A stretch of DNA of 64,000 bases. It comes from Eledone cirrhosa (taxonomy: Eukaryota). Position numbers and translations under genes: made by a program. Shown one piece after another: positions 2,616 through 61,979 of this stretch. Where the stretch lies: positions 89,032,001-89,096,000 of the forward strand of contig OZ024742.1 in assembly GCA_964016885.1 (NCBI GenBank), written 5' to 3'. Within the stretch, counting starts at the first letter, position 1; every line of letters starts with the position of its first letter. The notes beneath the pieces are model-generated. The model had not been told where the DNA came from and did no database searches. It saw nothing but the letters and a program-made list of their open reading frames with translations.

Positions 2616-2649
<34 letters not shown>

Positions 2650-2850: not shown

Positions 2851-2908
<58 letters not shown>

Positions 2909-5758: not shown

Positions 5759-5980
5759 AGAAAATAATGTAAGAAAACATGGAATATAAAAATGATATAA
5801 AAAATATAAAAATATAAAAGAAAAGAAAATATAATGGATATAAGAAAGTATATAGAGAAAATATATATAGAAATATTAGCTATATGTATAGACCGTTATA
5901 ATAGCCATGTGTAGTTCGGGATAATGATAATGATGGTTACCTGACTAATAAAAGTAATGATAATTATAAGTTATATTAAT

Positions 5981-6167
5981 AATTGTTTCTACTTTTGGCA
6001 CAAGGCCAGCAATTAACCAGTGTATTACTAGTACTTTATTTTATCGACCCCATAAGGATGAAAGGCAAAGTTAACCTCGGCGGGATTTGAACTCAGAATG
6101 GCAAGGGCCGTAACTCTATGCGTCAAAGCATGGCGTCCGACCCTCTACCGATACTGCCAATCCACCA
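5981..6167 (-). mobile_element. SINE family A
   Basis: full-length copy of the same family. Confidence 0.85.
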
Positions 6168-6220
6168 GTTATATTAATAATAATGATACTAAACATCCTG
6201 GTATTGATGAAAATATCTAA

Positions 6221-6320
6221 CAACTGTTTCTACTTTAGGCACAAGGCCAGCAATAACCCAGTACATTACTGGTACTTTATTTTATCGACCCCGTAAGGAT
6301 GAAAGGTAAATTTAACCTCG
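6221..6320 (-). mobile_element. SINE family A, 3' part
   Basis: matches family 3' half. Confidence 0.8.
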
Positions 6321-11580: not shown

Positions 11581-11769
11581 CAAAGTAAACGAGATATTGT
11601 CTAAGGATTAGACAATATTTCGTTTACTTTGATATATATACATATATATACATATATATAGTAATAATAATAAAATTGAAGACTAAAATCCAAAGGGGGC
11701 TCGATAAGGAAAACTTATATCAAATATATAAGAACCGTAGAGCAAATATTTATTAAAATAACAGATTAA

Positions 11770-11820
11770 AGTTTAAGCAAAGAATCGCTGCTTTCACCCT
11801 TAACGGGATCTTCTGAAACT
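11770..11820 (-). ncRNA. type I hammerhead-like motif (CAGAAGA core variant)
   Basis: inverted copy of 13207-13257. Confidence 0.6.
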
Positions 11821-11911
11821 AACAAAGTCAATCTGTAAACGCAGAACTGGATATTTCAAAAAACGTTGCAGCCGGAGGAAGACAGGAAGACGATACTTTG
11901 GTTCGTGGTAA

Positions 11912-12278
11912 GGTTGTAACACCCACGTCCCGTAGGGCCTACATAGGGTTAACCGCCAATAGTTTCAAGCAGCGTCTTTACATGCATACCCATTCTTTTC
12001 GTTACCCTCTAAGAAGGAATATGACGTCACTTTCAGCTTATATCTGGAGTCTAAAAGACAACCACACCCAATATAAGTTACACTGGGAGATCCTAGCTAG
12101 GGCTAGATCGTATAACGGAAATAAAAGACCATGTGACCTCTGCGCCGCTGAGGCCCTGGAAATACTCTACGCCACAGACCACATCTTAAACAAAAAATCT
12201 GAGACAATTTCGGCTTGTAAACATAAATTGCACAAAACTCTCCTGTATTACAGCCCCACGTTATACCCTAACGGATAG
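11912..12278 (+). pseudogene. PLE GIY-YIG endonuclease C-terminal part (probably Naiad-type), open but 5'-truncated
   Basis: YIGLTANSFKQR..HTHSF, TSLSAYIWSLK, CDLC..E, LNKKSE...CKH; no RT. Confidence 0.85.
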
Positions 12279-13206
12279 CACGATCTATACGTGGATATTT
12301 TACGTCTTGATGTGGCAGCTAAGTATATGTTTTGTTTATTCCTTTACTTATTTGCATAGGTAAGTATATATTACCCATATGTTTTGTGAAGGTATGTATA
12401 CCTTCTCGTACGTATATTTGACTGTTATGGCGTATCATTTTTACATATTCTGGTATTTAGGGTTTGGCTATGTGTATACGGGAGTTTTGCGTCCGAGTGA
12501 GTATGCAGGTTCGTACGTATGGTGGGTGTGTGTATATGTGTACTTCTTGTATTAGTTGACTTACGACTCCGAACATTCGTGTATTTATATGTAGGTATGT
12601 GTGTGCGCTTGTTATATACGTATTTATTTACTTATATACGTTTATATAATTATTTATTTATTTGTACACAAGCATACACACACACACATATTTATATGTG
12701 CGTGGTTTTGTATACCTATGGTAAGGTTTTGCGTATGCTTGTGTATGTACGTATCTGTTTGCGCATATGTATTTATTTGTTTCTATTACTTCTGTATCGT
12801 ATTTATTTACTTTGTTCTTAACTCTGTAGCGGAGATTCATTTGGTCTCCTAGTTCAAATTTTAGTCTACGACTTCTGCTATACCATTTACGTGGTTTTGT
12901 CTTTGCGTGCTTTTGTTCTCCACGCTCCACATATGACTTATTATCTTCGTTTTTTCGTTCATTGCCAGAGAACGTCTATATGCACCACCTAAGAGAACAT
13001 TAGTCTACGACCTCTTTTATACCATAAACGTGGTTTTGTCTTTGCGCGTAATTGTTTTTCACCGCTCCTATTAATGACGTATTATTCGTTTTTTCCCGTT
13101 CTTTGCCAGCGAACGTTACCACGAACCAAAGTATCGTCTTCCTGTCTTCCTCCGGCTGCAACGTTTTTTGAAATATCCAGTTCTGCGTTTACAGATTGAC
13201 TTTGTT

Positions 13207-13257
13207 AGTTTCAGAAGATCCCGTTAAGGGTGAAAGCAGCGATTCTTTGCTTAAACT
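13207..13257 (+). ncRNA. type I hammerhead-like motif (CAGAAGA core variant)
   Basis: agttt CAGAAGA t ccc gttaa ggg t GAAA gca gcgattctt tgc TT aaact. Confidence 0.6.
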
Positions 13258-13434
13258 TTAATCTGTTATTTTAATAAATATACATATATATATATATAAA
13301 TGTAATCTGAGTTTTTCGAATATTAATAATAATATTCCATTCGTTTGCAATTATGCAAATAAGCCTTATTTTTAAAGTAGAATGAGCCCTTCATTCTTGC
13401 TCTTTTGGTTGCATGTAATATATATATATATATA

Positions 13435-13567: not shown

Positions 13568-13805
13568 AGTTTTTTTTTCTTTTTTATGTGGAGTGAGACA
13601 CTTCTAGTCTTCATTAAGACATCTATCTAGGAGAAGGTCACTCTGATATGAAATCTGTGACTTCGTTGCATCTAATGATGTCAATCAGTTCTTCTTTTAG
13701 GGCAAATGCATTCGATGTTCAGTGTGTGGGATTGGCTCCGTGACAAGCCTTTCTTCACCTAAAAAAGCTTCAAACACAGTCATCGTTTGTTTCGTGACAT
13801 TTAAA

Positions 13806-13982
13806 TTGGTATATCGGTAGAGGGTTGGACGCCATGCTTTCTAGCACAGTTACGTCCCTTTACAGTCTGAGTTCAAATCCCGCCGAGGTTAACTTTGCCG
13901 TTCATCCTTACGGGGTCGATAAAATAAAGTACCAGTAATGTACTGGGTAATTGCTGTCCGTGTGCCTAAAGTAGAAACAATT
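13806..13982 (+). mobile_element. SINE family A
   Basis: full-length copy. Confidence 0.85.
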
Positions 13983-14339
13983 ATATGCAGGACTAAAATG
14001 CCACGTCCAGGATGTTCATGCTTAAGTATCAAGCGATAGGATAACTCTAAATAGAATTGCAGCCATCATATATATAAATAAATATATATATTCATATATA
14101 TATATATAAATATATATAGTGAAAGATTGAAGAATAACATGGTCGGCTGTACAGCCGACCATCTTACTCATCAATCTTTCGCTATTACTTCAATATTTCG
14201 CTATATACTACAAGAATAACCTGCATAGGAATTCTCGCGAACTCGCTACCTAACTAAGGAAACCTACGTTAAAACTATCCACAATACAAAGTACTCACAA
14301 CCTCTAACTGGATTACCTATAACGATAACTTGTTATCCC

Positions 14340-16269: not shown

Positions 16270-16998
16270 AAAGCTGGAATTGGAAATAGCACGGAAAATA
16301 TATTTAATGAGCTGTTTTTTTCTTTTTTTCTTCTTAGATTCGTCAAAGTGACATTGAAAAGATGAGATGAACAATTCTTTTAAAAAAAGGAGTTTTATAA
16401 TATATATAAAATATAACCGGTTTCGATGTATCAGTGTAAACCATCTTATAAAATGTTGAATATTACAATTAGAAATAATTAAAAAGAATTAAAAAGTAAG
16501 CGTTGAAGAGGTCTCTTCATCTTTCTTGTTGCAAAGACTCGGTCTAAAATGGAAGCTTATATCTAGAGAGAGAGGTCGTCATAGTAGAAGTAGTGGTGGT
16601 AGTTATGTCTTTTCACAGAGCACAATTATTTTTAGGAATAGTCTCAATTGTGTTAAAGGATTTAAACCAAAATTAATTATGTAATCACCCCATTAGATTA
16701 TTCATAAGGACCTATTGACTAAGCACATATACATATACAGACAAATCGATACATTTGCACACATACACACCGTGCGTTTGTATGTGTATATATATATATA
16801 TGTATGTATGTGTGTGTGTGTGTATGCACACATATACACACACACACACCCTATCCTCCCACCCACACACACACCACCACCACCAAATAAAAAAGAAATT
16901 GTTCATACATATTTTTCCAAAAATTCCTGATTGAAAGCCATCACCGATGCTTTGCTCCGTATTTTAATTTCCCACCACAAAAAGGCTTGTGACAAAGT

Positions 16999-17047
<49 letters not shown>

Positions 17048-17705
17048 AAAACAAACAAATATATATATAAATGTGTCCCCAAAAATATTTCTCTAAGTTT
17101 TGATGCCATCACACTTACAATAAGACACACACACACATATATTTATATACACACTCACACATACACACTCATATTCTCTAAAACAATATTGCTAAAGTAG
17201 AATTTATTTTGACAATCCCATTTGCCACTATTATTTACCTCTCTCCTCTATAGCAATTGTCTCTAGCTTACAATTCCCCCCTTCGCCACCCCCATTTAAA
17301 CTCTTCACGAATCCTTTAACACAATTGTGACTATTCCTACAAATAATTTTGTACTGTTAAAAGACACAATTAACACCACTACTTCTACTAATACTACTAT
17401 GACTACCCCTCTCTCTATAATTATAAGGTTCCATTTTAGACACAGTCTTCGAAGCAAAAATAGATGAACAGACCTCTTCAACACTTAATTTTTTTATTTT
17501 TTATTGTAATATTCAATATTTGATAAGATGGTTTACACTGATACATCGAAACATTTTATACATTTTATATATTTTATATACATTATAAAACACCATTTTA
17601 AAAATAATTGTTTCTCTCATTTTTTCAATAATATCTCTTTGACGAATCATAGAAGAAAAGTAGAGAAACAGATCCTTAAATATATTTTCATTGCTATTTC
17701 CAGTT
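16270..17705 (+). mobile_element. older diverged palindromic pLTR-like element
   Basis: about 16270-16665 inverted to 17308-17705; left arm retains catcGAAACCGGT (hammerhead remnant) on the reverse strand. Confidence 0.7.
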
Positions 17706-17718
17706 CCCCCCCCCCCCA

Positions 17719-19335: not shown

Positions 19336-21084
19336 ATATACTAAGTATTAATGAGACGGTATACATTTAGTAAAGGATAACGATTATAATCTTAGATAAT
19401 AGATTCATACATGCTAACTATAAAATGATCCACATTTCAAAATAAGGTCCGTAAAAATGTACAGGTTAGTTATCAAAACTATATTTAAAACAGAGATAGA
19501 AAAATAAAGGTCTGGATCAAAGTTAATAATATCAAAAAAGTCATAGGTTATGTATATCAACCTGCCAACATGTTCTTAAATTAGTGTCATTCATTCAAAC
19601 CTTGTTTTCATTATAAATGATTAGAAGATAAAGCATTATTAAAGTTTTATAAGCCATTATGATGTATATTTTCAACAATTGATCATGTACGTCTAAAAGC
19701 CAGGCTTGGTTGGTTATTGTTTTTTCCTGACCTTATGCGAGGCTTAGAATGTAGACAAAGCATGATGAAGGCAGTTTGAGAATAATTCACTTTTTTTGTT
19801 AATTAAGTTTTCATAATTATTAATTATCAATAGGGTTTCCATTGTACAGAGAGCGCAGTTACTTGATATACTTGAGTTGCGATAAACTCCACTATTATAA
19901 AGTTTCGTCCAAAAGATAGAGTATTTTAAATTTTTGTCTTTTAATGACCATATAAGCTGTGATAAAGAAGTCGATGATTTCCTATTAGAATTCGAAAATG
20001 AGCATTTATGATTCGCAAATCTAGCCTTAAATGTAGAAGAAGTCGATCCTATGTAGTTGTATGTGTGGTAATCAGTTTTTACGGTGCATTTATACACCAA
20101 ATTCCTACCAGATGGTTGAACGTCTGAAAGTATATACTTTCCTTATGCATATTAACGGCTGAGCAGCCTAATTTGCATATCGAGTGAGTTCAGTCGGCCG
20201 GGCACACCGAAAACGATAAATGGAATAGAATGAAACGAAGTTTCATTTCTCACTCTTAGTACGGCACTTACGTAAATGTAAGTATGTATGTATGTATACG
20301 TACATACATATATGTATACAGACGTACAGTAGTATGTATATATATACATACATGCATAGTTTGAATGGCGATAAAAACAATTACTATTTATCTTTCTAGT
20401 TTTGGGATGGGCATAGTGTGCATCATGTATACCACCTTATCTTTAAAGCCACTTTTCGATAGTGCTTCCTTGTAATTGTAATATATATTTCAGCCTTGTC
20501 AAAGATATCTCTAGTGGATAATAATTTCCGACTTTTCCTCTAATTATATTTACATATTTACTAGGTTTCTAACTATAGCTAGGCGTGTTTTCAGTTTGTA
20601 TGTAGGTACACTTCTTATTCGTTAGGCTTTCTGTTGGGATAGAAGTTTTCGTTCTGTATGTGAGCATTTCGAATGTTTAAACTTTTTAAAATGTGCCTTC
20701 ATTCACTAATGAAGATTCAAATGATAGATTATATGATCCTTTACCCTCATCAAACACATTGGAACAAATTGTTCTCTACATCATTGTCTTCATCCATTTT
20801 AAGACATGTGTCTGCATAGAACATCAAAATGAAATAAAAGATGGACTTCTTCATAGCGTGATTACATGTCTATCATAAAACAAAGCTGCTAGTTTCTCTG
20901 TTTTAATCGGGTATGTTAGCATGAAACATTTATTTTAATTTGCAAATATCTTTTGCATGAATAACCTGAATATTGATATTACACTACAATAAAATGATAT
21001 ATCATCTTCAGTTATGTCTATGCAAGACATTTAATTAAATATCGTAAATGTGAAATTTGTAATAGAATAAAACCAAATACTTAC

Positions 21085-22953: not shown

Positions 22954-24109
22954 CTGTATCAGATTCTAGGCTTTATAATTGACAGTGTTCTTTTTCGGTG
23001 ACCACGTGTGCACCGTATTTCTAAAAGCAATTAAATATAAAAGGTTAAAACTTTGTAGTAAACAATTCATCTCTAGCTAGCTACCTAGCTTGTGCAAAGT
23101 TGAAATTTGACACCGATTGGTGAACTGTTCGGATATATAGATATTACAACTGCTAAAAATACTGACACTTTAGATTGCATGTAATAGTAAAACATTCTGC
23201 TGTTTGGTAAATATTCACTCTCTAATATTTTACAACCATCGGTTAGGTTTTATTTCTCATAATTCTCTTGTATTACTACAACAGATCTCCTCCTCTGCAT
23301 TTACAGCCTGTATACATCTATCAAAGCCCTTATAAATCACAGAATTTCAATTCTATTTCTTTACACAAGGAATCTGTCCCATCCATTATTGTGCACAGTT
23401 TGCCCAATCACTTGCTGTAACTTCTCTCTAATCGAATCGAAATCTAGTACGATTTTTCCCTATCTAAAGTGTCTAATTCGATGAAAAGTGAACCTAAAAA
23501 AAGGAACATAGAGATATATCATGATATATACACAATTCCCACAGCCAATAAACAGATATGTATTTAGTCGGGGAAAAAGAGGAGTGTTCAACTGCAGAAA
23601 TTCCTAAATCCATGAGACCGATTCGCTTAAATCACAGCTTAGCTGGAGTTGAATGAATATCCCTAGCTTTTATGGAGGGTATAGGAAATTAAAGGAAGGA
23701 AAATATCTAGGGAAAGATTTTGAAGTAAGACACAGCAAGTATGAAGAAAAAGAGTGTTTCGAGTACATTGTGCAGCAGTTGTGTACATCCTGGTATTTAG
23801 CGCTAGCAGAGTCCATTATCATAAGGTAAACGGGGAGGGTGTCACTGGCCATGGTCCGCGGCATTGCTTTCCCCGTCTTGTCTGCGGGGCACAGCACTTC
23901 TGCCCTCTTGCCCTAGATCCAAAACCAATCACCCCCCCCCCCCTTCACCCATCCCCTGTCTTCTGCAACACCAGAGCTCTTGCCATCCCCTACCCTTTCC
24001 TTTTCTTCTTTCTTTCTCTCTTTTTTTCTCTATATTTCCCTATTCTTTCTTTCCTTCGGTTTCCCTTTTTTATCATTGCCGTCATTATAGTTGTCTTGTT
24101 AATTTCCTA

Positions 24110-24413
24110 CCGAGGTTAACTTTGTCTTTCATCCTTACGGGGTCGATGAAATAAAGTACCAGTAATGCGCTGGGTAATTGCTGGCCTTGTGCCAAATGTA
24201 GAAACAATTATTATTATAGTTAAAGCAATGGTTTGGCAGTATCGGTAGAGCGTCAGACACCATGCTTTGCAGCATAGAGTTATGGACCTTTCTGTTCTGA
24301 GTTCAAATCTGCCGAGGTTAACTTTGCATTTCATCCTTACGGGGTCGATAAAATAAAGTACCAGTGATGCACTGAGGTAATCGCTTGCCTTGTACCAAAA
24401 GTAGAAACAATTA
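24110..24413 (+). mobile_element. two tandem SINE family A copies (partial 24110-24212, full 24232-24413)
   Basis: match to family consensus. Confidence 0.85.
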
Positions 24414-24561
24414 TAATATTTAAATAGAACATTATGAGAGCAGTGTTTGTAACTTGTTAACAAATAGACCAGAGATTCATTCTCTCTTTCTTTTTTTTCC
24501 TTTCTTATATACACGTATAAATTACAGAAAAGAGTTAAATTATATACATAATTATACATAC

Positions 24562-24620: not shown

Positions 24621-24867
24621 CTGGAATATATAAAACGTATATAACATTACTAAATGTTTATTACAAAATTACAACGAATATTTGATCGAATCGACTCATA
24701 TTATTGGTATTTGCTTGAACTCGCAGGAGAAAGGATAGGCAACGTTAAATACTATAGGATTGAAATTAGATTGTATAACGGTGCATAGGAATGAAATTAA
24801 ATATGAATGTAGTAGGGTTTTTTCTTTATATTTTCAAACTCAGGCATATGATTAACATTCATATAAT

Positions 24868-25000
24868 GATTGTTTCAACGTTAGGCACAACGCCAGCAAT
24901 TAAACAGTGCATTACTGGTACTTTACTTTATCGACCCTGTAAAGATGAAAGGCAAAGTTAACCTTGGCGGGATTTGAACTCGGAATGGCAAGGGCCGTAA
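24868..25000 (-). mobile_element. SINE family A, partial
   Basis: match to family consensus. Confidence 0.8.
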
Positions 25001-25245
25001 CATTCATATAATGATATGAACAGAGAAGGTAACGTAATATAACTAAATCTTACAAGTCATTCCTCTGCTGTTTTACCAGCCCTACAAACCGGTGTTTCTT
25101 CACATTAGTATTGGTTTATAATATAGGCTCAATGGAAGATAAGTTGCAAGGCTTAACAGATAATTATTTTATTGATCTAGGAAATATGAAGAAAAATGCA
25201 GCACTTTAATCTAGTACACGAAAGTAGTTATGTAAATGGTACTCT

Positions 25246-25603
25246 AATAAAAACAAACCTATATTGGCAATAGCCGTGATACCTGGACAAATTTTTAATT
25301 TGTTTCGCAATAATTAAGTGAAAGTTCCTATTCCTGTGCTCTTCTGCAGGTATCCAGAAATTGGTATGTTTCACTTCAAAATACTTAAGAAGACTGAGAG
25401 AAATGTGTTGTTGAACGCACATGTGTCACAGCGCCTTGCTCGTCCCATACTCGTGCCGCTAAAATTAGCAGCCGGTTTTATGGGACTAAAAATTAGCACA
25501 GGAATAGGAACTTTCACTTAATTGTTGCGAAACAAATTTAAAGTTTAAAATTTAAAATGTGTCCAAGTATCACGGCTATTGCCAATATAGGTTTGTTTTT
25601 ATT
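25246..25603. mobile_element. fold-back / MITE-like element
   Basis: 25246-25340 inverted to 25495-25603; non-coding spacer. Confidence 0.65.
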
Positions 25604-25860: not shown

Positions 25861-26462
25861 AGTATGTGTGTATTAATAGGTGTTGAGGTGCAAGTTAATT
25901 GCGTCCATCGGTGGTATGCCGAATGAGCACTCGATGTCCTTGGGGAGCAGAGTATCAATAGTTTTAATATATAAGGGAACGGGAGAATAAGTGTTGCATC
26001 ATATACATATTTAATTACATATTACATATGTTTCCCTGTCGATCAGCTCGAGGAACGATCCATTAATGATCGAACCTGACTCTGGAAGCTCCTCAGATAT
26101 GTTTTAACATGTAGTCTCGCGTCTAAGAGTAGTTGAATATTATCCCGATTCCTTCTCATATGCTACCACAAATTCTGTCATAGTGGTATTTCACCGTAAT
26201 CAGTTGTTGGTTTGTTTTCGCTCAGCTGGGGGTTTCTTATAATTTAGCAGCTATTATCTCCATCTCGGTCAAACTGTCGCACGTATCCATGCGTGTCGAT
26301 CCGTCTGTGTGACGTCCGCTGGCACATTGTTTGAAGTAAGCATTAAGGAGATAAGGCAATACAACAAGAATGCAGGGTGATGACAGTAAAGGGGTAAAGG
26401 ATTTTTTTAAATACAAAACCACACACACAGATATATGTATAATATATATATATATATATATA

Positions 26463-27053: not shown

Positions 27054-27932
27054 CTTTTATTTGTTCATTCAAAATATTTTTCAGGTAATTCTGTCGTACA
27101 GTATACATCAGCAATCGTTATCTAATGTTTAAAACATATGAATAGCTGCGATATATGCACCATATCAATCAAAAACGATATGAGAAATGAGTACCATACT
27201 AAAGCTCCAGTTAGATAGAAATGTTAATAAATACATTTGGTTTGGGTAAACTTTAAGATGTTCTTTCATTGTAGGTTTCTCTTCTTAGCCAGTGCGTTAA
27301 AGAAAATTGATAGTTACAACAATAAAGGTTGAACAGGGAACACATTTTTTAACAAACTTTACAATAATTTGTACAACCATAATGGAAATTCCAAGTAACA
27401 GAAAATACATAAATTACATTGTTAGAGCCTCAGAGTATACAATATGTTTTGTTCGGCCTTCGGCAGCAAAAATGTAGAGATTGTTTGGCGAGCTCACCCT
27501 AGAGCATCCTACATACAATTGACTATGGTTTTCCCAGATGAAGGCCAGCTACTTTTAGGGTTTGAGCGTGAGCTTTGTTGATGGTAATCTCGAAGCTTAG
27601 TCTCTCTGTAGCTCTAGTAGCATTTTTTTCTTCTGGAGAGTTTGATCTTGCGGCCAGGCTAGGACATTTTGGGTGGCATATCGGCAGTAACAATGACGAT
27701 AAGCCGTCTGTTTATATTGTGTTTATATATGTATTTGGCAACCATTCACGATGTGGCTCAATGACGAATTAATTAATAAATAATCAACAATCAGAGCAAT
27801 ATACAATAAAGTACGTCCATAGAATCATTTGATAAAATATATACACCATTTGTTTGACGATAAGCCGTTAGTTTATATTTTGATTTTGTGTATGCAAAAA
27901 ATATATGTATACGAATATATAATTATATATAT

Positions 27933-28078
27933 CAGATTAAAGTTTAAGCAAAGAATCGCTGCTTTCACCCTTAACGGGATCTTCTGAAACTAAAAAAATC
28001 AATCTGTTAACGCAGAAGTAAATATTTCGAAAAACGTTGCAACCGAAAGAAAACAGGAAGATGATACTTTGGTTCGTG
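27933..28078 (-). mobile_element. solo copy of the 11746/13281 pLTR arm (hammerhead-like motif 27941-27991)
   Basis: close match to 11762-11908, including the CAGAAGA core. Confidence 0.85.
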
Positions 28079-28287
28079 AAGACGTTAGGAATGTCGTATA
28101 ACCGGAAGTGTTGACATTTGAAAATGTTAAAGAAGTGAATATTTAAATAATGTCTTTAATCTTTTAACAAAATTCAGTAGACGAAAATGCCTTCACTTTT
28201 TTACTTGGAAAAAGTTACATCTATGGTGCAAATTTGTTGCTCTTTGTCCAGCCGTTTGGCGGAAAGTTTGTTACCGTCAGCTTTATA

Positions 28288-28362
<75 letters not shown>

Positions 28363-28794
28363 GGTGTCTTTTAATCTTATAGCCTCGTTTAATTGGTTTT
28401 TTGTGTGGTTGATTATGCTGATTGAGAGAGGAGATGGTGTGTATATTTTATCAAATGATTCTATGGACATACTTTATTGTATATTGCTCTGATTGTTGAT
28501 TATTTAATTAATTAATCGTCATTGAGCCACATGGTGAATAGTTGCCAAAAACACATATATATATATATGACTGTCTAGTTTGTGTATATGTAAATCTTTA
28601 TATTTGATAATCTCCCATAGGTTTGAGATGCAATTTAGGCAATATTAGGCTGCGCTTTCTAGCAACCAGCCCACTCACCGTAAGGTACCAATCACATTCT
28701 TTCTGACTTGACAACTGCCACGTCACAGTTCTTAGACAATTTGAATTCGTTTCTGGCGGGGATCATTTAAGAAAATCTTCGTCCAAGTGAGTTT

Positions 28795-28875
28795 GTTTCC
28801 TGATGATTTCGAAGCTCGTGAATTTATCCTTGATCGGATATTTCCAAAAGCGAATGAAATCCCATGGGTAGAAAC
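28795..28875 (+). ncRNA. type I hammerhead ribozyme with long stem II loop
   Basis: gtttc CTGATGA t ttcg [long loop] cgaa t GAAA tcccatggg TA gaaac. Confidence 0.7.
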
Positions 28876-29163
28876 GTAATCTTGGTATGTTTATATACAA
28901 TTTTCCTTCTAACTTTGATTTTATACCTAATTGTATGGTTTACGATATATTTAATCGATTTCCACGTGCTATTGAAATGGTGGGTAAATATTCTATAGCT
29001 GTTGATCGCGAATAGATGGCTGTCGTTTATTTATCTATTATTACTTCATAGGTGCCTTTTAATCTTATAGCGTGGTTTAATTGGTTTTTTGTGTGGTTGA
29101 TTATGCTGATTAGGAGAGGAGATGGTGTATATATTTTATCAAATGATTCTATGGACATACTTT

Positions 29164-29226
<63 letters not shown>

Positions 29227-31314: not shown

Positions 31315-31370
<56 letters not shown>

Positions 31371-31452
31371 GTTATTCCGGGTTGAATCGGAGGTAACCAC
31401 AGTAAGTAAGGTACTCAATACATAGCAGAGTATAAAAGTTTTAATATAGATG

Positions 31453-31503
31453 AGATTCTACAGGACTAGAACTGTTTCATTCTTTAGAAATCATCAGGAA
31501 TCT
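31453..31503 (-). ncRNA. type I hammerhead ribozyme
   Basis: inverted copy of 35746-35796. Confidence 0.8.
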
Positions 31504-32116
31504 GGGTATCAAAAAATAAAAATGGTATTTATAGGTCTCTACAAGTGGTAGGAGAGGGTGGGGAGTAGGATGGGTGTAGGTCATTGGTTGATAGAAAAGG
31601 GAATTCATTAAAAGCTAATTCTACAAAGCTATAGTTCATTTTTATTTTTATTTATTTATGTTTTTTAGAGTAACAAAGGCAGACAGAATTCTATAAACAG
31701 GTTCCGGATGGCATACCATTCTTTGTCATTAAGTTTCTCTTAAGCTAACAGATGTCTATAAAATCAGTGGGGGGTCAGTCATGGTAGAGAGAATTAAAGA
31801 AAGGGAGATTCTTTAAAAGCTAAAATCATTAAGGTTCTACCAAGTGACAAAGGTTTAGAGAATTCTGTAGACAGATTCAAAATACTGAGTGCATATCTTA
31901 CAATTATCTTCGAACTTCTCTTAAACTAATCAACTATATGTCAAAAATCAACAGACACATTCACAAAAAAACACACACTCACTCACACACTCACGCGCAA
32001 CCATAAACACACATACACATACACATATACACACATAAAAACACACACACATATACATAAATATATTCATACACATACATATACATACACATATATATAT
32101 ATATATATATATAAAA

Positions 32117-32147
<31 letters not shown>

Positions 32148-32276
32148 TATATATACACACACACATACATATATATATACACACACACGCACATATATAC
32201 ACATATAAAAATACACTCACACACTTACATACAAACACAAATATACATGTGTATACATATACACATAAAGACTCAT

Positions 32277-32319
<43 letters not shown>

Positions 32320-32445
32320 CATATATATATATACACAATGCATATACACACACATATATACATATACACACACATACACACAAACACACATATATATATA
32401 TATACATATACATATATACATAAACAAATATATACATATACATAC

Positions 32446-32480
<35 letters not shown>

Positions 32481-32534
32481 CGCACACACACACACATATA
32501 CACATATACAAGGAAAAAGCACCATACATACACA

Positions 32535-32566
<32 letters not shown>

Positions 32567-32575
32567 CATATACAC

Positions 32576-32612
<37 letters not shown>

Positions 32613-32696
32613 TACACCATTCATACATATATTCATATATATATACACACACATATACATATATATATTTATATATATATATATATATACATATAT

Positions 32697-32737
<41 letters not shown>

Positions 32738-32851
32738 AATATATATATATATATATAAATAAACATACACACACATACATACATATACACATATACATAC
32801 ACACATATATATATATATGTACATATATATATACAAACATATGGGGCTCTT

Positions 32852-33298
32852 TGTAATTGCCTAAATAAGGAAGCATGCCCACTTGAAAACAAATGCCTCA
32901 CTAATGATATCGTATACAAATGCGATGTCATCTCAGGCACCGAGGATTGCAAAAGAACTTACATCGGCATGACCTCCACCAACTTCAAGATCCGTTGGTA
33001 TGCCCATACCCACTCCTTCAGAAGACCGGACAAATCAAATCAGACAACACTCGCCTCCTACGTTTGGGACCTCAAAAGGAACTCCACCCCCTTCACGCTT
33101 AAATGGAAAATACTCCAGGAAGCGCGCTCTTACAACGGAGGACACAAGGGCTGCGACCTTTGTATTTCAGAGAGCTACGAAATTTTATTCGCCAAGGGCC
33201 CGCTACTGAACAAACTCTCTGAACACTGCCCGAACTGCATGCACAAGAACTTTGCAACTTTCAAACACTTTAAGCCAGTGTTAATGCCCGATGGCTAA
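32852..33298 (+). pseudogene. PLE GIY-YIG endonuclease domain (probably Naiad-type), open frame, 5'-truncated
   Basis: [24 protein letters not shown]...[20 protein letters not shown]...CDLCISE...LLNKLSE.CPNCMH; frame extends upstream of the listed ATG at 32969. Confidence 0.9.
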
Positions 33299-33528
33299 AA
33301 ATGACCTCCCCCTATTGGCCTCTATACCTCCTCCCCACCCTACCTCCACCTCTCCTCAACCTGAAATACGGCCACTATGGTTATGTGAGTACCTCCTTCC
33401 TATATACATTTTCTGCCTGTAGAGGTGTTTTTATGTGTCTGCGTATATGCGTATATTTATTGAGTACTTATTTATTTGTATGTGTATATATTTGTTTGTA
33501 TGTGTGTATATGTATGTGTATGTGTATG

Positions 33529-33563
<35 letters not shown>

Positions 33564-33635
33564 ATATGGTTTTTATGTGTGTATATTTATGTATGTATAT
33601 GTATGTATATATGTATGTGTATGTATATGTATATG

Positions 33636-33672
<37 letters not shown>

Positions 33673-33789
33673 GTGTGTATATATGTGTATGTATGTGTAT
33701 GTGTATGTATGTGTGTATGTATGTGTGTGTGTATGTGTATATATGTATGTGTGTATATATATGTGTGTGTATATATGTATATATATACA

Positions 33790-33837
<48 letters not shown>

Positions 33838-33913
33838 TACATGTGTGTGTGTGTATGTGTGTGTGTGTATATATATTTGTGTATGTGTGTGTGTATGTAT
33901 GTGTGTATGCGTG

Positions 33914-33951
<38 letters not shown>

Positions 33952-34296
33952 CATATATACACACACATATATATACACACATACATATATACACATACAC
34001 ACATATATATATGTGTATTTGTGTGTGTATATATGCGTTATGTGTCTGTATATATGTGTATATTTATGTATTGGTCTGTGTATGTATGTGTATATATGTA
34101 TGTATATGGATATATATATATATTTATACATATGCATGTGTATATGTGTGTATATATGTGTGTGTGTATATATATGTGTGTGTATATGTATGTATATATG
34201 GGTATGTGTGTGTGTGTATGTATGTGTATATATGTGTATATGTGTGTATATATATATATGTATATCTATGTGTATGTGTATGTTTGTATATATATT

Positions 34297-34345
<49 letters not shown>

Positions 34346-34426
34346 ATGTGTATATGTATGTATGTGTGTGTATGTTTATTTATATATATATATATATTTA
34401 TGTGTATATATATATATATATATGTG

Positions 34427-34509
<83 letters not shown>

Positions 34510-34551
34510 TTGTGTGTATATATATATGAATATATGTATGAATGGTGTATA

Positions 34552-34590
<39 letters not shown>

Positions 34591-34615
34591 GTGTATATAT
34601 ATATATGTATATATA

Positions 34616-34687
<72 letters not shown>

Positions 34688-34713
34688 GTGCTTTTTCCTT
34701 ATATATGTGTATA

Positions 34714-34764
<51 letters not shown>

Positions 34765-34905
34765 GTGTGTGTGTATGTATATGTATATACTTGTTTATGT
34801 ATATATGTATATATATATGTATATATATATATATATGTGTGTGTTTGTGTGTATGTGTGTGTATATGTATATATGTGGGTGTATATGCATTGTGTATATA
34901 TATAT

Positions 34906-34973
<68 letters not shown>

Positions 34974-35104
34974 CTATGAGTCTTTATGTGTATATGTATA
35001 CACATGTATATTTGTGTTTGTATGTAAGTGTGTGAGTGTATTTTTATATGTGTATATATGTGCGTGTGTGTGTATATATATATGTATGTGTGTGTGTATA
35101 TATA

Positions 35105-35135
<31 letters not shown>

Positions 35136-35745
35136 TTTTATATATATATATATATATGTGTGTATGTATATGTATGTGTATGAATATATTTATATATATG
35201 TGTGTGTGTTTTTATGTGTGTATATGTGTATGTGTATGTGTGTTTATGGTTGAGCGTGAGTGTGTGAGTGAGTGTGTGTTTTTTTGTGAATGTGTCTGTT
35301 GATTTTTGACATATAGTTGATTAGTTTAAGAGAACTTCGAAGATAATTGTAAGATATGCACTCAGTATTTTGAATCTGTCTACAGAATTCTCTAAACCTT
35401 TGTCACTTGGTAGAACCTTAATGATTTTAGCTTTTAAAGAATCTCCCTTTCTTTAATTCTCTCTACCATGACTGACCCCCCACTGATTTTATAGACATCT
35501 GTTAGCTTAAGAGAAACTTAATGACAAAGAATGGTATGCCATCCGGAACCTGTTTATAGAATTCTGTCTGCCTTTGTTACTCTAAAAACATAAATAAATA
35601 AAAATAAAAATAAACTATAGCTTTGTAGAATTAGCTTTTAATGAATTCCCTTTTCTATCAACCAATGACCTACACCCATCCTACTCCCCACCCTCTCCTA
35701 CCACTTGTAGAGACCTATAAATACCATTTTCATTTTTTGATACCC

Positions 35746-35796
35746 AGATTCCTGATGATTTCTAAAGAATGAAACAGTTCTAGTCCTGTAGAATCT
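35746..35796 (+). ncRNA. type I hammerhead ribozyme
   Basis: agattc CTGATGA t ttc taaa gaa t GAAA cag ttctagtc ctg TA gaatct; predicted GUA cleavage after 35790. Confidence 0.82.
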
Positions 35797-35833
35797 CATC
35801 TATATTAAAACTATATATATATATATATTTATA

Positions 35834-35882
<49 letters not shown>

Positions 35883-35913
35883 TTATATATATATATATAT
35901 ATTTATATATATT

Positions 35914-36020
<107 letters not shown>

Positions 36021-36021
36021 T

Positions 36022-36092
<71 letters not shown>

Positions 36093-36259: not shown

Positions 36260-36460
36260 TTTGTTATACTTGGGGAGGGTCGTATTTGTGTAATAATATT
36301 GCCAGAATTGGTTGGTTTTCGCTTCTGTGTCTTTTATATCGGTTAATTTAATTTATTCGGTCCTCAATGTTACCATTGACTGACCAACGGTCAAAAATAC
36401 AGATACAATATAGACACAAACACATATATATATATGAGTGGGTGTCTGTGTACATATAAC

Positions 36461-36628
36461 TATTTCTACTTTTGGCACAAGGTCAGCAATTATCCCAGTG
36501 TATTACTGGTATTTTATTTTATCGACCCCGTAAGGATGAAAGGCAAAGTTAACTCCGGCGGAATTTGAACTCAGACCACAAAAGACCGTAACTTTTTGCT
36601 AGAAGGCATGGCGCCCGACCCTCCACCG
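36461..36628 (-). mobile_element. SINE family A
   Basis: match to family consensus. Confidence 0.8.
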
Positions 36629-38653: not shown

Positions 38654-38751
38654 AATTCTGTGGAAGTTATCTGATGAGAACATCCTGTCTTATATCATAT
38701 TTGCATGATGGAGTTGGACCATTGAAATATGTATTGTGATTTCACAGAATT
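38654..38751 (+). ncRNA. candidate hammerhead with long stem I
   Basis: aattctgtggaagttat CTGATGA ... GAAA tatgta TT gtgatttcacagaatt; base of stem II poorly paired. Confidence 0.5.
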
Positions 38752-40823: not shown

Positions 40824-41116
40824 CTAAAATTGAAAAATACAATTAATTATTATGGGCAACATGAATTTCCCCATATATATGTGTGTGTTTGTGTATGTGT
40901 GTGTGTACATTGGATTAAGCCCACCGACAAATGCAATCCTTTGTGGCATATATTTATGTACTCCCATTTATATATATTTTATCGACAGGGTAAGGATGGA
41001 AGGCAAAGCTAATTTCGGCGGCTTTCCTGATGATTTCGAATGAAACATTTCTTGTCATCTAGAAGACATTTCCATATTAAATTTTATACAAGTATATATA
41101 TATATAGATATATATG

Positions 41117-41454
<338 letters not shown>

Positions 41455-41834: not shown

Positions 41835-42839
<1,005 letters not shown>

Positions 42840-43053
42840 ATGAATATTATACTCCAGAAAATCTATCTAGTGCTCTGAATCAGTTATAAACATTTATATT
42901 TGTTGAAATACCAACAAATTGAATATCCCTTTGCTTATATATATATATATATATGTATGCGTGTGTGTGTATGTGTGTGTGTGTGTGTGTGCGTGTGTGT
43001 ATTATATATATATATTTATATATATATATGTGTATATATATATATATGTATAA

Positions 43054-43086
<33 letters not shown>

Positions 43087-43165
43087 TAAATATATATATA
43101 TATAATTGTATATATATATGTATATATATACATATATGTATATACTGTATATATGTATATATATG

Positions 43166-43979
43166 TATTGTTATACTTTGGGAGGGTCATGTTGCCAATA
43201 AGAAACACACGCACCATAAGTCTTTCACTCCAATTTATTATAAGTTAAATTAAATTATAAATTTAAGAAATTTATAACTTTCGGTTGTTCATATATTGTA
43301 AAAGTTCTTTCGTCACACATTCTCTGACCTCATCAGTGACCGGGGATTCTATTTTTCTTTTTTTTGTGTGTTTTTTGAAAACACACACATAGAACAAACA
43401 ACCAACTAGTAACATGTAAATAAACAAATAAATAAACAAATAAAAACACACACAGACACCCGGATGTAACACATGCCCAAACTAAGCACACAACACACAC
43501 AAAAACAAGATGGCGTAGAACAGAACAAAGGAGAGGCACAAAACAAAGAGAAAAAAAGAATCCCCGGTCAATGATGCTTAGTTTGCGCATATGTTACATC
43601 CGGGTGTCTGTATGTGTTTTTATTTTTTAATTTATTTGTTTATTTACATGTTACTAGTTGGTTGTTTGTTCTATGTGTGTGATTTCAAAAAACACAGAAA
43701 AAAAAGAAAAAAAGAATCCCGGTCACTGATGAGGTCACAGCATGTGTGACGAAAGAACTTTGACAATATATGAACAACCGTCCGGTTGTGGAACCAACCA
43801 ACCAACCGAAAGTTATAAATTTCTTAAATTTATAATTTAATTTAACTTATAATAAATTGGAGTGACAACTATGGTTCGTGTGTTTCTTATTGGCAACATG
43901 ACCTTCCCAAAGTATAACAATATCGGTTTCAACACACGTTTTCAGATAAAGAATTTTGCTAAACAAATTCAAAAACGAA

Positions 43980-43980
<1 letters not shown>
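43166..43980. mobile_element. palindromic pLTR element with hammerheads and right-hand tail
   Basis: 43166-43488 inverted to 43575-43922; tail 43923-43980; terminus ttgttatact..ggg.agggtc shared with 29222 and 36261. Confidence 0.85.
43722..43764 (+). ncRNA. minimal type I hammerhead
   Basis: gtca CTGATGA g gtcaca gcatg tgtgac GAAA gaac TT tgac; inverted copy at about 43298-43340. Confidence 0.65.
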
Positions 43981-44010
<30 letters not shown>

Positions 44011-44070
44011 TATTTATACACATATATATATATACACATTTATATATAAATATATATATATATATATATA

Positions 44071-44142
<72 letters not shown>

Positions 44143-51172: not shown

Positions 51173-51522
51173 TGGAGGAAGTAATAGTTCACTTGAAGCA
51201 TTGTGTAATGAGGTATAAACGTTTGAATTTGTGAAGCCAAACAATGCAGGTATGGACATAGAATAAAAATGCAAATGCAAAATATATTGTTGACAATTAG
51301 TATTTTACCTTAGATTTATTTAAATGCCTTTAATTTTCGAGATAATATCTCTTCTTCGGAGGGAAGTAAAGCGGCTAAACCAGTGTTCTAAATAGCTTGC
51401 CAAGTCATGCACGACTTGGCAAGCTATTTAGAACAGTAGTTTAACACTGTCAACAATATCTTTTGCACTTGCATTTTTATTTTATGTCCATACCTGCATT
51501 GTTTGGCTTTACAAATTCAAAC

Positions 51523-51529
<7 letters not shown>
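51173..51529. mobile_element. palindromic insertion in (TA)n with left tail
   Basis: 51214-51295 inverted to 51448-51529; central hairpin 51384-51435; tail related to 41455-41535. Confidence 0.75.
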
Positions 51530-51573: not shown

Positions 51574-54500
51574 AAAATTGAACGGGAACACAACAGAGAG
51601 GCAGTACGAACAAAGGTTTATTAGTTTCACGCTCTTGAGAGTGGGGTGGTGGTGGGGAACGACGTTTCGGGCATAAGCCCTTCTTCAGGTGAAAAGTGTG
51701 TGGGAAGAGAGTTCAAAGGGTGTGTAGGGGAGTGGTGGAAAGACATATAGCAAAAAGGGGGTGAGAGGAAACGATGCAAATGAAATTAAAAATAAAGGCA
51801 TGATCAAAATAAAATTAAAATGGGGTAAAACAGGTGGTGGAAGGGTGTGGGGAGTGTAGGGGTGGTGGAGGGTGGAGTGGGGAGAGGGAGACGGGGTGTC
51901 CGAGCGGGGAGGGCTGAAGGTGATGTGTGTATGTAAGTGTACGTGTGTGTATGTGTGTGTGTATGTGAAAGTAAGGGTTGGGGGAAGAACGGGGTTGCAT
52001 GTTCAGGAAGAGGTGTGTGTGGGTGGGGTGTAGGTAGGAGTGTGTGTGCGTATGTAGATAGAGGGGTAGGGGGAGAGGATTACGGAGGCTGAATGTGTAA
52101 ATATGTGGTGGTACGCACGTGTGTGTGTGGTGTTTATGCGTGTTGTGGATGTAGGTGGCGTGTGGGGAAAAAAATGTTTTTGGGTGTATGTCTGGGGTTG
52201 AGTCGTAAAGGTAATTCCGTAAAAGGGTGTGGTTGAATGCTGAGTAAAATCCTTGGGATGCGGTAGATTCTCGGGATCAAGATTCACATATGTGTAATCC
52301 GTGAAGAGATTGGTCGGAAGAGAGGAGATGTGGGGTGCGCGTGCAACAGGAAGTGGTCAGAGGGTCAAGGCAGGAGGAGCTATGTGTCTGTGTGTGCGGG
52401 GAGGTGGTCAGAGAGGCATGGCAGCAGTAGGGTAGAATGGTAAGTGAAGAAAGTCGGTGTGTCAGTGTGTGCGGAGGTGCGGTGGACAGGGGAGAGTATG
52501 GGTAGGTGTGAAAGTTGGAGTGAGGAGAGGGGGGTGTATTAGTAGAGGTGTTAGTGGGATGTGTGTGTGTTTGAGAAAGGGTGTGGGTGGAACGGGGAGA
52601 GAAGGATGTGGGGGCCGATGGAGGGAGTGAGTGTAATGTTAGTGGGTGTTAGTATACTGGAGGTGGAGAAAGGGTTGAATACGGGTGTGAGTGGGGGTCA
52701 GTGGTGGTAGGGTGTGTAGAGTGGGTGGTGTAAGAGGGTGTGTGTGTTCGTGTGCGTAGGGTTGGGGGGTGTTAGTGATGTTAGTTGCGTGTAGAGTGGG
52801 TGGTGTAAGTGGGTGTGTGTGTTCGTGTGCTTGGGGTCAGGGGATGTTAGTGATGTTAGTTGCGGGGTGGTAGGGTGGATGTGTGGGGGTGAGTGTTAGT
52901 GGTGGTAGTAGGGTGTGTGTTTAGTGTGAGCGCGTGTATATATGTACCGGTGGGTGTGGGCGTGTGATAAGGAGGGGCAGGAGAAGAATGGAGGGTGTTA
53001 GTATGTTAGTTGGGGAAGGGTGGTCGGATGTGGAGTGGAGGTGTTAGTATTGTTAATTGTGGGGTGGGCGGTGAAAAGGAGGGGTGTGTTAGTGGTGTTA
53101 GTGGGGGATATGTGTGGGGGGAGGGGGGCGGTCGAAGGCTAAAGGAATAAGGGTGGGGAGTTCAGGCCGGTGGGAGTGTGGGTCTGTAGGGTGAAGATGG
53201 TTCGTTGTTCGACCCTTAGGAGAGTGGCGGGTTTTCCGTGGCATTGGAGTAGGCCACAACAGACTGTGAGGTGGTGTGCGGAATGTCCAGGGGTTACCAA
53301 AGTGGCGGGCAATGGGGGAACTACCACCGACACGAATATCCCGGAGGTGCTCAGTAAATCTGTCAGCCAGGCGACGTCCAGTCTGTTCGACGTAATTCCG
53401 CGAATTCCGTAGACTAGGTTGGAGGAGGTGCAGCGGAAGGCATGCCGGACAGAGAGAGAGGGTGGCCGTTGGGACCCTGGAAGGTGGTGATTTTGGTGAT
53501 GTGGGGACAGGTGTTTCAGCGGGGGCTAGAACAGGGAAAGGAACCGGGGGGGTGGAAGAGAGCGTGGGTTGGGGGGTAGGGAGCTGTGGACGAGGAGGGT
53601 GCGGAGATTGCGTGCGCGTTTGAAGGAGAGGAGTGGTGGGGCTGGGAAGATATGGGAGGTTGAGGGGTCTGACTGGAGGCGTCGGAAGAGGCGGAGGATG
53701 GTGCGGTGGAGGGGTATGGTGGAGGGGTGGTAGATGATGGGGAAGGGGAGACGGTGGGTGGGTGCGCGGTGGCGTGGACAGTACGGGCGCGGGTGAGAGC
53801 GGTGTGGATGAGAGAGGGGGGGTAACCTCTGCGGATGAAATGGCTGACTAGGGAAAGGGCCTGGGACTCAAAGTCAGCATCTCGGCTACAGAGGCGGCGG
53901 ATCCTGAGGAATTGGGAGTAGGGAATAGACTGTTTAGTGTGTGTGGGGTGGGAAGAGATGAATTCGAGGTAGGAGTGGGAGTCGGTGGGTTTGAAGAAGC
54001 CGGAGGTGACGAGGGAGTGGTGGGAGGGGTCGAAGGCGACGGAGATGTCTAAGAAGTGGACGTGGAGATAGAGGTGGTGAAGTGGAGGGAGGGGTGGAAG
54101 GAGCAGAAGAAGGAGAGAAAGGAGTCGAGCTGTTCTCGGGTGAGGGTCGTGGCTCCGATACAGTCGTCGATGTAACGACCGTACAGTTCGGGCGTGGGGC
54201 CGGTGTACTGGGCAAAGATTTGGGCCTCAACATGGCCAACAAAAAGGTTGGCATAGTTTGGGCCCATTCTTGTACCCATGGCTACCCCCGTTACCTGTTT
54301 GTAAAACTCACCCGAGAAGAAGAAACAGTTGAGGGTGAGGACCAGTCGGCGAGGCGAAGGTGGTGGGGGTGGAGGGGAGGGGGGAGGGGCGAAGGTCGAG
54401 GTAGTTTTTGAGGGTGCGTAGGCCGACGGCGTGGGGTATGACAGTATAGAGGTACTTAATGTCTAGGGTGAAGAGGAATGGCTGTGGGCCGGGTGGGTAG

Positions 54501-58221: not shown

Positions 58222-58276
58222 ACTGCTATATATATTTCGGTGACAGCCATTTTTGGCTGTGACCTCTTCAGGCAGT
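58222..58276 (-). ncRNA. type I hammerhead ribozyme, intact core
   Basis: actgc CTGAAGA ggt c acagcca aaaa tggctgt c acc GAAA tatata TA gcagt. Confidence 0.88.
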
Positions 58277-58989: not shown

Positions 58990-59500
58990 TATATCAAGTA
59001 GAAATTGATTGACATATATATATATTTAAAATAACCACATGAAACAATCCCAGGGGAGAATTTGTAAAGTGTGTAATCACACATAGCTAGGTAGGTAACT
59101 AATTAAAGTTTAACTAGAGCTTCAAATATTACCTTTTAAAAATTGATTAAACTTCCTTGTATATATTTCATTAAAGAAATATATTTCATGATTAATCCGT
59201 AAAGTCACAGTAGTCACAGTAGTCACAAGATTCATCATTTTTTTAAAAGGTAATATTGAATCTCTAATTAAACTTTAATTAGTTACCTACCTAGCTATGT
59301 GTGATTACACACTTTACAAATTATCCCCTGTTTTAAATATATATATTGTTTCATGTGTTTATTTTAAATATACATATATGTCAATCAATTTCTAGTTGAT
59401 ATAAAATGGTCGGATCTATTCATTGAAATCTTTGAGCTTATTCTACGGTGGATACGGCGCAGGTCTCGGACATGATTCCCTTAATTTAATTTAATTAATT
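58990..59500. mobile_element. palindromic insertion in (TA)n with right tail
   Basis: 58990-59150 inverted to about 59232-59403; tail to about 59500; no intact hammerhead. Confidence 0.75.
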
Positions 59501-59801: not shown

Positions 59802-59990
59802 TGGTGAATTGGCAGTATCGGTAGAGGGTCAGACGCCATGCTTTCCAGCATAGTTACGTCCCTTTACGGTCTGAGTTCAAATTGCGTCGAGATTAACAAT
59901 ACCTTTCATCCTTACGGGGTCGATAAAATAAAGTACCAGTAATGCACTGGGTAATTGCTGTCCTTGTGCCAAAAGTAGAAACAATTATTA
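59802..59990 (+). mobile_element. SINE family A
   Basis: full-length copy. Confidence 0.85.
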
Positions 59991-60665
59991 ACAGTGATAC
60001 TATGATTACTACACCTCCCTGTCGTCGTCTTCTGCTACACCCACCCCTTCTCCATCTTCCCCTTCCTTACGATATCCCTGGTATTACTACCACACCCATC
60101 CCCTGTCCCTCCCTCTTCTTCGTCGTCTTCTTCTCCTTCGTCATCCTCATCTCCTCCTCCCCCACTCCTTCTCCTTCTTCTTCTCCTTCCCCATACCCCC
60201 CCCCCCCACTATAACCACTACAGTCGGAGGCAACAGCTTAACTGCTACCACCACTATTGGTAAGGCTAAGGTTAACATTAAGAGAGAAAGAAAGAAACCT
60301 ACAGACAAAAATGTGATCTTTTCTCCCTAAATATGTATGTAAAAACAAATGTTTTCCCCATATTCTTATTATTCTTATTGATGCAATGTAATTGCATTAT
60401 ACACTTCCGTCGTTGAAAAAGCATAGAAGCTGAAACCGGTACAATTAAATGCGGAAATCTCTATTTTGTAAATAAGTGTTTTGATGTTATTCTAACATTT
60501 CCTACAGTTTTTTTTTCTTTTTTACTCTCTATATATAGGAAAAGAGTCAGGGCCCCGACGGCTGAGCTCCGACCGTTTCCACAGCTAGATACGAATATAT
60601 ATATATATATATATATTCGTATCTAGCTGTGGAAAAAAAGATATATATATATATATATATATATA

Positions 60666-61335: not shown

Positions 61336-61979
<644 letters not shown>

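Follow-up and report, generated by a model that had tools for sequence, protein, structure and literature searches.

What kind of element carries a GIY-YIG endonuclease (EN) as its only coding content, between two long inverted arms that each end near a hammerhead ribozyme motif? The question is raised by a 4.4-kb insert at positions 31370-35812 of a 64,000-nt stretch of the Eledone cirrhosa genome (GenBank assembly GCA_964016885.1, contig OZ024742.1, positions 89,032,001 to 89,096,000 of the forward strand; this whole stretch is the window, to which all coordinates refer), with (TA)n runs on both of its sides. The first-pass annotation of this DNA offered two options, a reproducible truncation-plus-fold-back integration product or a non-autonomous endonuclease and ribozyme element; were the EN-only reading true, the insert would represent a new non-autonomous retroelement type carrying its own nuclease. 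In our analysis, it very probably derives from a Hydra-clade Penelope-like element (PLE) as a dead copy, truncated at the 5' side and joined head to head to a second, shorter truncated piece of the same 3' end; the whole probably arose in one integration into (TA)n. This reading is carried by the inverted arms, the two different 3' ends, a GIY-YIG frame without a start codon, the C-terminal position of the EN in relatives that combine it with a reverse transcriptase (RT), and the varying junctions of sister copies. On this view the insert would be nothing out of the ordinary for its clade of retroelements, which is known but little studied. Its parts and target are the following:

31319-31369, no strand: left target, (TA)n, read from the sequence
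31370-31436, minus strand: 67-nt tail, +23 to +89 past the predicted hammerhead cut, present in the inverted arm only by sequence comparison
31437-32841, minus strand: inverted copy of the 3' end of the element, truncated at its 5' side and made up of 3' untranslated region (UTR) alone
31453-31503, minus strand: type I hammerhead of minimal form in the inverted arm, with cleavage predicted after 31459
32841-32842, no strand: junction at which the two copies meet head to head, with a readable overlap of 0-1 nt
32842-35812, plus strand: direct 5'-truncated copy, 2971 nt
32843-33298, plus strand: linker end (G-A-L), CxCx5C and GIY-YIG endonuclease carrying CxxC and CxH, its YIG not preceded by a start codon
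33299-35745, plus strand: 3' UTR, with 2454 nt between the stop codon and the hammerhead core
35746-35796, plus strand: type I hammerhead of minimal form in the direct copy, with cleavage predicted after 35790
35797-35812, plus strand: short 3' end, stopping at +22; this end (+22/23) recurs at 41224
35813-36090, no strand: right target, (TA)n/(TTTA), read from the sequence

The insertion into (TA)n and the 1.4-1.5 kb arms described earlier were confirmed by measurement, with the inverted arms spanning 31370-32841 (1472 nt) and 34279-35812 (1534 nt). So were their unequal ends: the right, ORF-side arm (ORF, open reading frame) stops 22 nt past the predicted cut, and the left continues for another 67 nt, to +89. 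In their complex outer part the arms are 99.2% identical over 524 nt (three substitutions, one indel), and the whole arm minus the tail gave 1372 matches, 30 mismatches and 10 gaps. Simple repeat makes up ∼60% of each arm and 94% of 33480-35285 within the 3' UTR of the direct copy. In the microsatellite part of the left arm, 142 of 217 non-simple 14-mers recur in the right arm, as opposed to 7 in the non-arm middle; since the inner arm parts share these landmarks, the repeat-rich UTR was already present in the template. No target-site duplication was readable in the right (TA)n/(TTTA) flank.

The EN frame is open from stop to stop (32759-33298), and the uninterrupted, Cys-rich GIY-YIG domain claimed for 32852-33298 stood up to structure prediction. 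An AF2 model of it (predicted local distance difference test, pLDDT, 93.8) was compared by VIA-align, where GIY-YIG structures came out on top: I-TevI at Z 9.1 (root-mean-square deviation 2.4, 89 aligned), T4 EndoII at 7.4 and UvrC at 6.1. Foldseek returned nothing for this model at E≤0.001, though GIY-YIG enzymes ranked top, and a Pfam search of the frame gave no GIY-YIG match, Pfam missing most of the long relatives as well. Judged by the model, the frame is predicted to encode a GIY-YIG endonuclease domain. It keeps the predicted catalytic Y, Y-G, R, H, E and N; its CxCx5C linker motif (CNCLNKEAC at 32852) is common to 106 of the 150 best homologues, and CDLC..E and N..E..C-x-H are present whereas CCHH is absent. 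A second His is missing too, as is a CxxC between its GIY and its YIG strand, in contrast to the PLE whose EN lies at 1526-2161. Frame and profile checks found no RT inside the element, again as annotated before. What the earlier reader had not noticed is that the first in-frame ATG, at 32969, falls just past YIG. No splice-acceptor AG precedes the EN between 32612 and 32860, and a donor-like GTAAGT on the plus strand of the tail (∼31410) has no acceptor near the EN. With neither an in-frame ATG nor an AG upstream, and with both pseudo-long terminal repeat (pLTR) ends pointing outward, the focal copy looks like a stump, from which the nuclease most likely would not be made.

The relatives of the EN point to the element from which this stump may derive. 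At E≤0.001 the EN query matched 5292 representative proteins, the best being 49% identical. Long homologues surfaced in an index-free protein search, while a word-indexed search gave none; they are ∼700 aa long and run through RW[RKQ], DKT, YRDD, the linker and CxCx5C to an EN at the C-terminus. The RT motif YRDD occurs in all 19 homologues of at least 450 aa (six of them cluster mates), and the RWK/DKT region, absent from the focal copy, is present in all complete long homologues (e.g. P0041, P0057, P0059, P0071, P0129, P0132). Among 78 related metagenome loci, which were fetched with a full-length RT-EN alignment and hence favour RT-bearing loci and are unfit for counting EN-only copies, an EN match was found in 75, a single RT+EN ORF of at least 620 aa in 44 and a hammerhead in 51, as against one after shuffling. 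These single-ORF RT-EN relatives are at ∼40% identity. Two of the loci, L027 and L034, share one junction and count as one event: an inverted 3' end is joined at about residue 68, with nearly the whole RT kept. The start codon in 19 whole relatives lies 84-390 nt past the hammerhead cut, mostly at 146-187 nt and thus beyond the focal +89 end. In 25 whole relatives, 67-515 nt separate the stop codon from the hammerhead, so that the mostly microsatellite 2.45-kb 3' UTR of the focal element is about five times the longest among them. The 2454 nt found here would explain why the EN alone survives as coding sequence: although the 2.97-kb cDNA exceeds most whole Hydra elements in length, it reaches only the nuclease. 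In five further loci (L001, L003, L051, L053, L054), contigs that cover the whole element begin and end with the same 55 nt and may thus represent tandem or circular units of 2.4-2.6 kb that were collapsed.

As for the clade, the marks given for Hydra elements are CxCx5C, CxxC plus CxH, the lack of CCHH, hammerheads and (TA)n targets (Craig et al. 2021, PMC8557442); RWK and DKT near the N-terminus of the RT, as seen in the long homologues, are Hydra motifs as well. The focal element has the CxCx5C linker, CxxC/CxH beside the conserved E and N, no CCHH and an insertion into (TA)n, and (TA)n also flanks the family copies at 41.2 kb and 61.4 kb. It departs from the clade's trend to short units (<3 kb), the truncated copy alone measuring 2971 nt, yet this trend is descriptive rather than a diagnostic motif (PMC8557442). 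The Neptune/Nematis/Naiad signature (Cx2-5CxxC linker plus CCHH) is not matched by the focal EN and fits only one of the 150 homologues; nor does the insert have the layout of non-LTR retrozymes, a non-coding head-to-tail hammerhead tandem, its arms being head to head with a coding remnant. By its motifs, the element thus most likely belongs among the Hydra-clade EN+ PLEs. The earlier Penelope-like assignment is in this way borne out by the EN fold, the RT-EN relatives and the Hydra motifs. The insert also shows the integration layout of EN+ PLEs, with 5' truncation, an inverted truncated copy at the 5' end and a one-sided tail. Inverted truncated copies with such a tail are described as typical of PLEs (PMC8557442, PMC3846280), and File S1 of PMC8557442 lists Penelope-13_HM, a Hydra family, as bearing a truncated, inverted copy at its 5' end. 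Besides, the window holds an RT-bearing PLE of another clade (1-3324) with inverted arms at 147-490 and 2949-3293 (96%). Its broken RT and thumb frames (494-1425) and the Cx4CxxC linker with GIY-YIG at 1526-2161 (Pfam E 8e-6) suggest by motif that the PLE at 147-3293 is Neptune-like.

Each arm carries a type I hammerhead near its outer end, as had been annotated: the core CUGAUGA...GAAA...GUA lies at 35752-35790 on the plus strand and at 31497-31459 on the minus strand, with a 6-bp stem I. A type I hammerhead descriptor, which recovers both, found nine motifs in the window and none in any of 20 shuffles. An Rfam scan of the window gave no hammerhead; all its 115 matches were under the gathering score, mostly to microsatellite miRNA models. 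The focal motifs are minimal (3-bp stem II with U.U at the base, 4-bp stem III). Among five distinct window copies, 89% of the cells are paired and three pairs show two-sided change, in few and related sequences, so that these changes lend the hammerhead fold weak support. The minimum-energy fold of the motif at 35746 differs from the hammerhead fold, which the copy at 61530 does adopt. Minimal hammerheads close together on opposite strands with low activity in vitro have been reported (PMC4209133). Most likely the focal hammerheads are passengers of the pLTR, with self-cleavage only predicted. Single type I motifs also occur at 26023-26096 (−), 38671-38735 (+), 58227-58271 (−) and 41024-41089 (+), the last a decayed relative of the focal family, and a 330-nt palindrome of another family (42522-42851) has a whole hammerhead in each arm (+42746, −42627).

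How constant the focal layout is can be judged from its relatives in the window:

41224-41408, no strand: 185-nt palindrome of the same family, no ORF; it turns within the hammerhead core and has its ends at +22/23 and +89
61379-61882, no strand: ∼0.5-kb palindrome of a related subfamily (76% identical), no ORF; tail on the longer arm
11661-13281, plus strand: second Hydra-type family; inverted 255-nt arm, junction at ∼11915 inside the EN

The copy at 41224-41408 is ∼95% identical to the focal family, and the +89 end point recurs there, the tail similarity covering 41284-41408. The family copies turn at different junctions, leaving palindromes of 4.4 kb, ∼0.5 kb and 185 nt, and the 32841/32842 junction was not found to be shared among the window copies. 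Thus, the 3' ends (+22/23 and +89) are constant among these copies while the inversion junctions vary. The 11661-13281 element had been taken for a recurrence of the same design. This holds for its layout but not for an intact nuclease: the EN is broken, without CxCx5C and the first GIY strand, the inverted arm has only 255 nt, and the hammerhead-like core reads CAGAAGA. A second copy of this family lies at 27914-28078; both carry the CAGAAGA core, with U4 replaced by A. A third Hydra-type EN remnant, at 19747-20106 (−), begins at the first GIY strand, and no inverted arm or hammerhead was found for it. The three Hydra-type EN remnants of the window begin at profile positions 560, 578 and 585. 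The tails at 31390-31428 and ∼61404-61442 share an identical stretch of ∼38 nt between subfamilies that are 76% alike overall, making it a candidate protein-binding or RT start element.

How might such an insert form? We propose that the RT-EN protein of a full-length parent would nick both strands of the TA repeat and that two cDNAs would be primed, at +22 and +89 past the hammerhead. Their templates would be two RNAs or two tandem pLTRs of one RNA, as is required because both cDNAs cover the same 1.4 kb. The cDNAs would stop independently after 2.97 and 1.47 kb, and repair would join them with an overlap of 0-1 nt. Background for such a route comes from a PLE protein that cuts and extends both strands of AT-rich DNA and starts at two internal RNA sites bounding the tail, with the hammerhead being dispensable (Frangieh et al. 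2024, PMC11167929). A different mechanism for an element of the same identity would be that one cDNA folds back and primes itself, with one end trimmed later; this we consider unlikely, although it deserves to be weighed, and it concerns the mechanism only, its account of the element's identity overlapping with ours. Self-priming has been proposed (PMC3846280), the tail has been attributed to EN-mediated resolution (PMC8557442), the 41224-41408 copy is a nearly perfect hairpin, and the tail on the longer arm at 61379-61882 is what fold-back would give. In the focal insert, however, and apparently also at 11661-13281, it is the shorter arm that has the tail, which the longer arm lacks and of which it can therefore be no plain copy. 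With 67 nt absent from the longer arm, plain fold-back is impossible unless that arm was trimmed later, and the position of the tail may favour two priming events. The junction overlap of just 0-2 nt and the extension of both strands from two sites by the PLE protein in vitro (PMC11167929) also speak against fold-back. Of the first option in the earlier annotation, truncation and inversion therefore stand, as does reproducibility for the two 3' ends, which recur at 41224-41408; reproducibility of the inversion junction does not, and its fold-back part fits poorly.

On the other hand, the insert might belong to a non-autonomous family of EN plus hammerhead with a fixed junction, copied in trans by a Hydra RT, which we judge very improbable. 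We give as little credence to its more explicit form, in which a Hydra RT acting in trans would recopy the palindromic unit from the unit's own transcript, the EN would be made through an unseen splice or a non-AUG start, and the nuclease would help to open (TA)n. Such a family could draw on the open frame with its full set of catalytic residues, on a junction immediately ahead of the zinc finger and on the existence of non-autonomous PLE derivatives (PMC8557442; bioRxiv 10.64898/2026.07.22.740005). Yet the domain has no start codon or splice acceptor ahead of it, both hammerhead/pLTR ends face away from the 5' end of the ORF, sister copies have other junctions and no ORF, and the EN at 11.7 kb lacks its first motifs. 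An open frame is, besides, expected by chance, the probability of no stop after seven substitutions being 0.78. In public read runs, loose contig ends run past the focal 5' junction in three contigs of run X1 (before 32858) and one of X4 (before 32864); the ∼10 and ∼7 nt by which they respectively exceed it stay in frame and encode linker residues. With 920 contigs of varied identity in X1, the family is present in many copies. Of the 26 displayed ORF variant sites, those variable among other copies are 15 synonymous to 4 non-synonymous and those private to the focal copy 2 to 5 (Fisher p=0.028), the neutral expectation being 73% non-synonymous. The private changes are thus indicatively at a neutral ratio, and with no Met before YIG and this 2:5 ratio, albeit in a small selected set, a translatable EN under purifying selection was not supported. 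Given the differing junctions, the missing start codon, other copies that run on in frame and the neutral-ratio private changes, the second option of the first-pass annotation is not supported. In the open-access literature, to which the search extended (subscription papers and bioRxiv supplements being outside its scope), no EN-only PLE family turned up. Two read patterns were set aside: some 2500 reads of X16 with mixed loose ends at 33179-33181 were rejected as a truncation hotspot, being a library effect, and the rise in X1 depth toward the 3' end of the EN was not used, as summed depth is not copy number. The X16 reads begin at GCATGC sites and finish at AATT (33181-33184), the pattern of what we take to be a double-digest restriction-site-associated DNA library, the enzymes being our assumption.

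Several points weigh against a dead truncated copy of an RT-bearing element. The family's own RT-bearing parent was not recovered from the protein homologues or the metagenome loci, and each of the three Hydra-type coding remnants in the window breaks off inside the EN or right ahead of it. The in-frame extension of other copies past the junction appears to amount to just ∼10 nt. Positions 32800-32841 were masked in the read comparison, so that copies sharing the focal junction would be invisible there, which would equally have hidden shared junctions of an EN-only family, and record 17 of X5 has 92 unseen letters before 32842. The variant test covers 26 ORF sites among the 40 best-supported displayed of 224, and is indicative only. 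Seven private changes in 444 nt exceed the ∼1.7 expected from arm divergence (Poisson ∼0.002, by hand arithmetic), an excess that also favours an EN-only family; it could reflect a host species differing from that of the runs, homogenisation of the arms or an already decayed template. The tail of 67 nt is longer than the published 30-40. Finally, although microsatellite-rich inverted repeats are difficult to assemble, an assembly artefact is hardly credible, as the arms differ by three substitutions, one indel and many repeat-length changes, and another copy, ∼5% diverged, has exactly these unequal ends.

Elsewhere in the window, inverted-arm elements without a descriptor hammerhead lie at 16276-17707, 25246-25603, 42937-44142, 51214-51529 and 58990-59403, and 53810-54061 (−) weakly matches a PLE RT thumb region (profile E 2e-5). 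A dispersed repeat of ∼185 nt, 82-94% alike (5255-6320, 13804-13987, 24107-24426, 24861-25001, 36453-36628, 59802-59991), might be a short interspersed element by its size; ARAGORN found no tRNA anywhere in the window. A non-coding hammerhead element at 27724-29172 has a 688-nt period (28362-28484 repeats at 29050-29172), a hammerhead at 28800-28870 and a longest open frame of 68 codons, and its inverted piece (27724-27849) extends 75 nt beyond the direct end; it may be retrozyme-like or a non-autonomous PLE.

Reading the focal insert as a truncated mirror-armed PLE copy gives it a use beyond its own case. The fixed +22/+89 ends, combined with a tail that sits now on the longer and now on the shorter arm, offer a genomic test of two-primer integration versus fold-back, a step of PLE transposition left open in the papers cited. 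The long repeat-rich 3' UTR shows, moreover, how elements can spread simple repeats and leave behind nuclease-only stumps that resemble a separate element. Among known systems, the likeness is greatest in kind to the Hydra clade (PMC8557442), with its CxCx5C linker, CxxC plus CxH around the conserved E/N, lack of CCHH, type I hammerhead and (TA)n target; the ACAG/CUGU of stem III is shared with Hydra-1_aMil, and the U that flanks stem II on either side with Hydra-1_aJap. It differs in its 2.45-kb, mostly microsatellite 3' UTR, its 67-nt tail, the RT missing from this copy and a unit that would be ∼4.7 kb, compared with 1.4-3.0 kb in the Hydra rows of File S1. The Penelope insertions of Adineta vaga (PMC3846280) likewise show a head-to-head inverted repeat, a one-sided tail and frequent 5' truncation, but belong to another clade, with arms of ∼200 bp, readable target-site duplications and a pLTR that includes the ORF start, which the focal pLTR does not reach. 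Non-LTR retrozymes, viewed as PLE derivatives (bioRxiv 10.64898/2026.07.22.740005), share the type I hammerhead of the PLE pLTR and the lack of a functional protein, whereas they are short, non-coding head-to-tail tandems, unlike the head-to-head focal element with its coding remnant. In the PAc Poseidon element of Anolis (PMC11167929), two 3' ends bound a tail downstream of the hammerhead and the target is AT-rich, as here, yet its ORF begins within the hammerhead, with the starts 111-118 nt into it, it belongs to another clade, and it has been tested in vitro.

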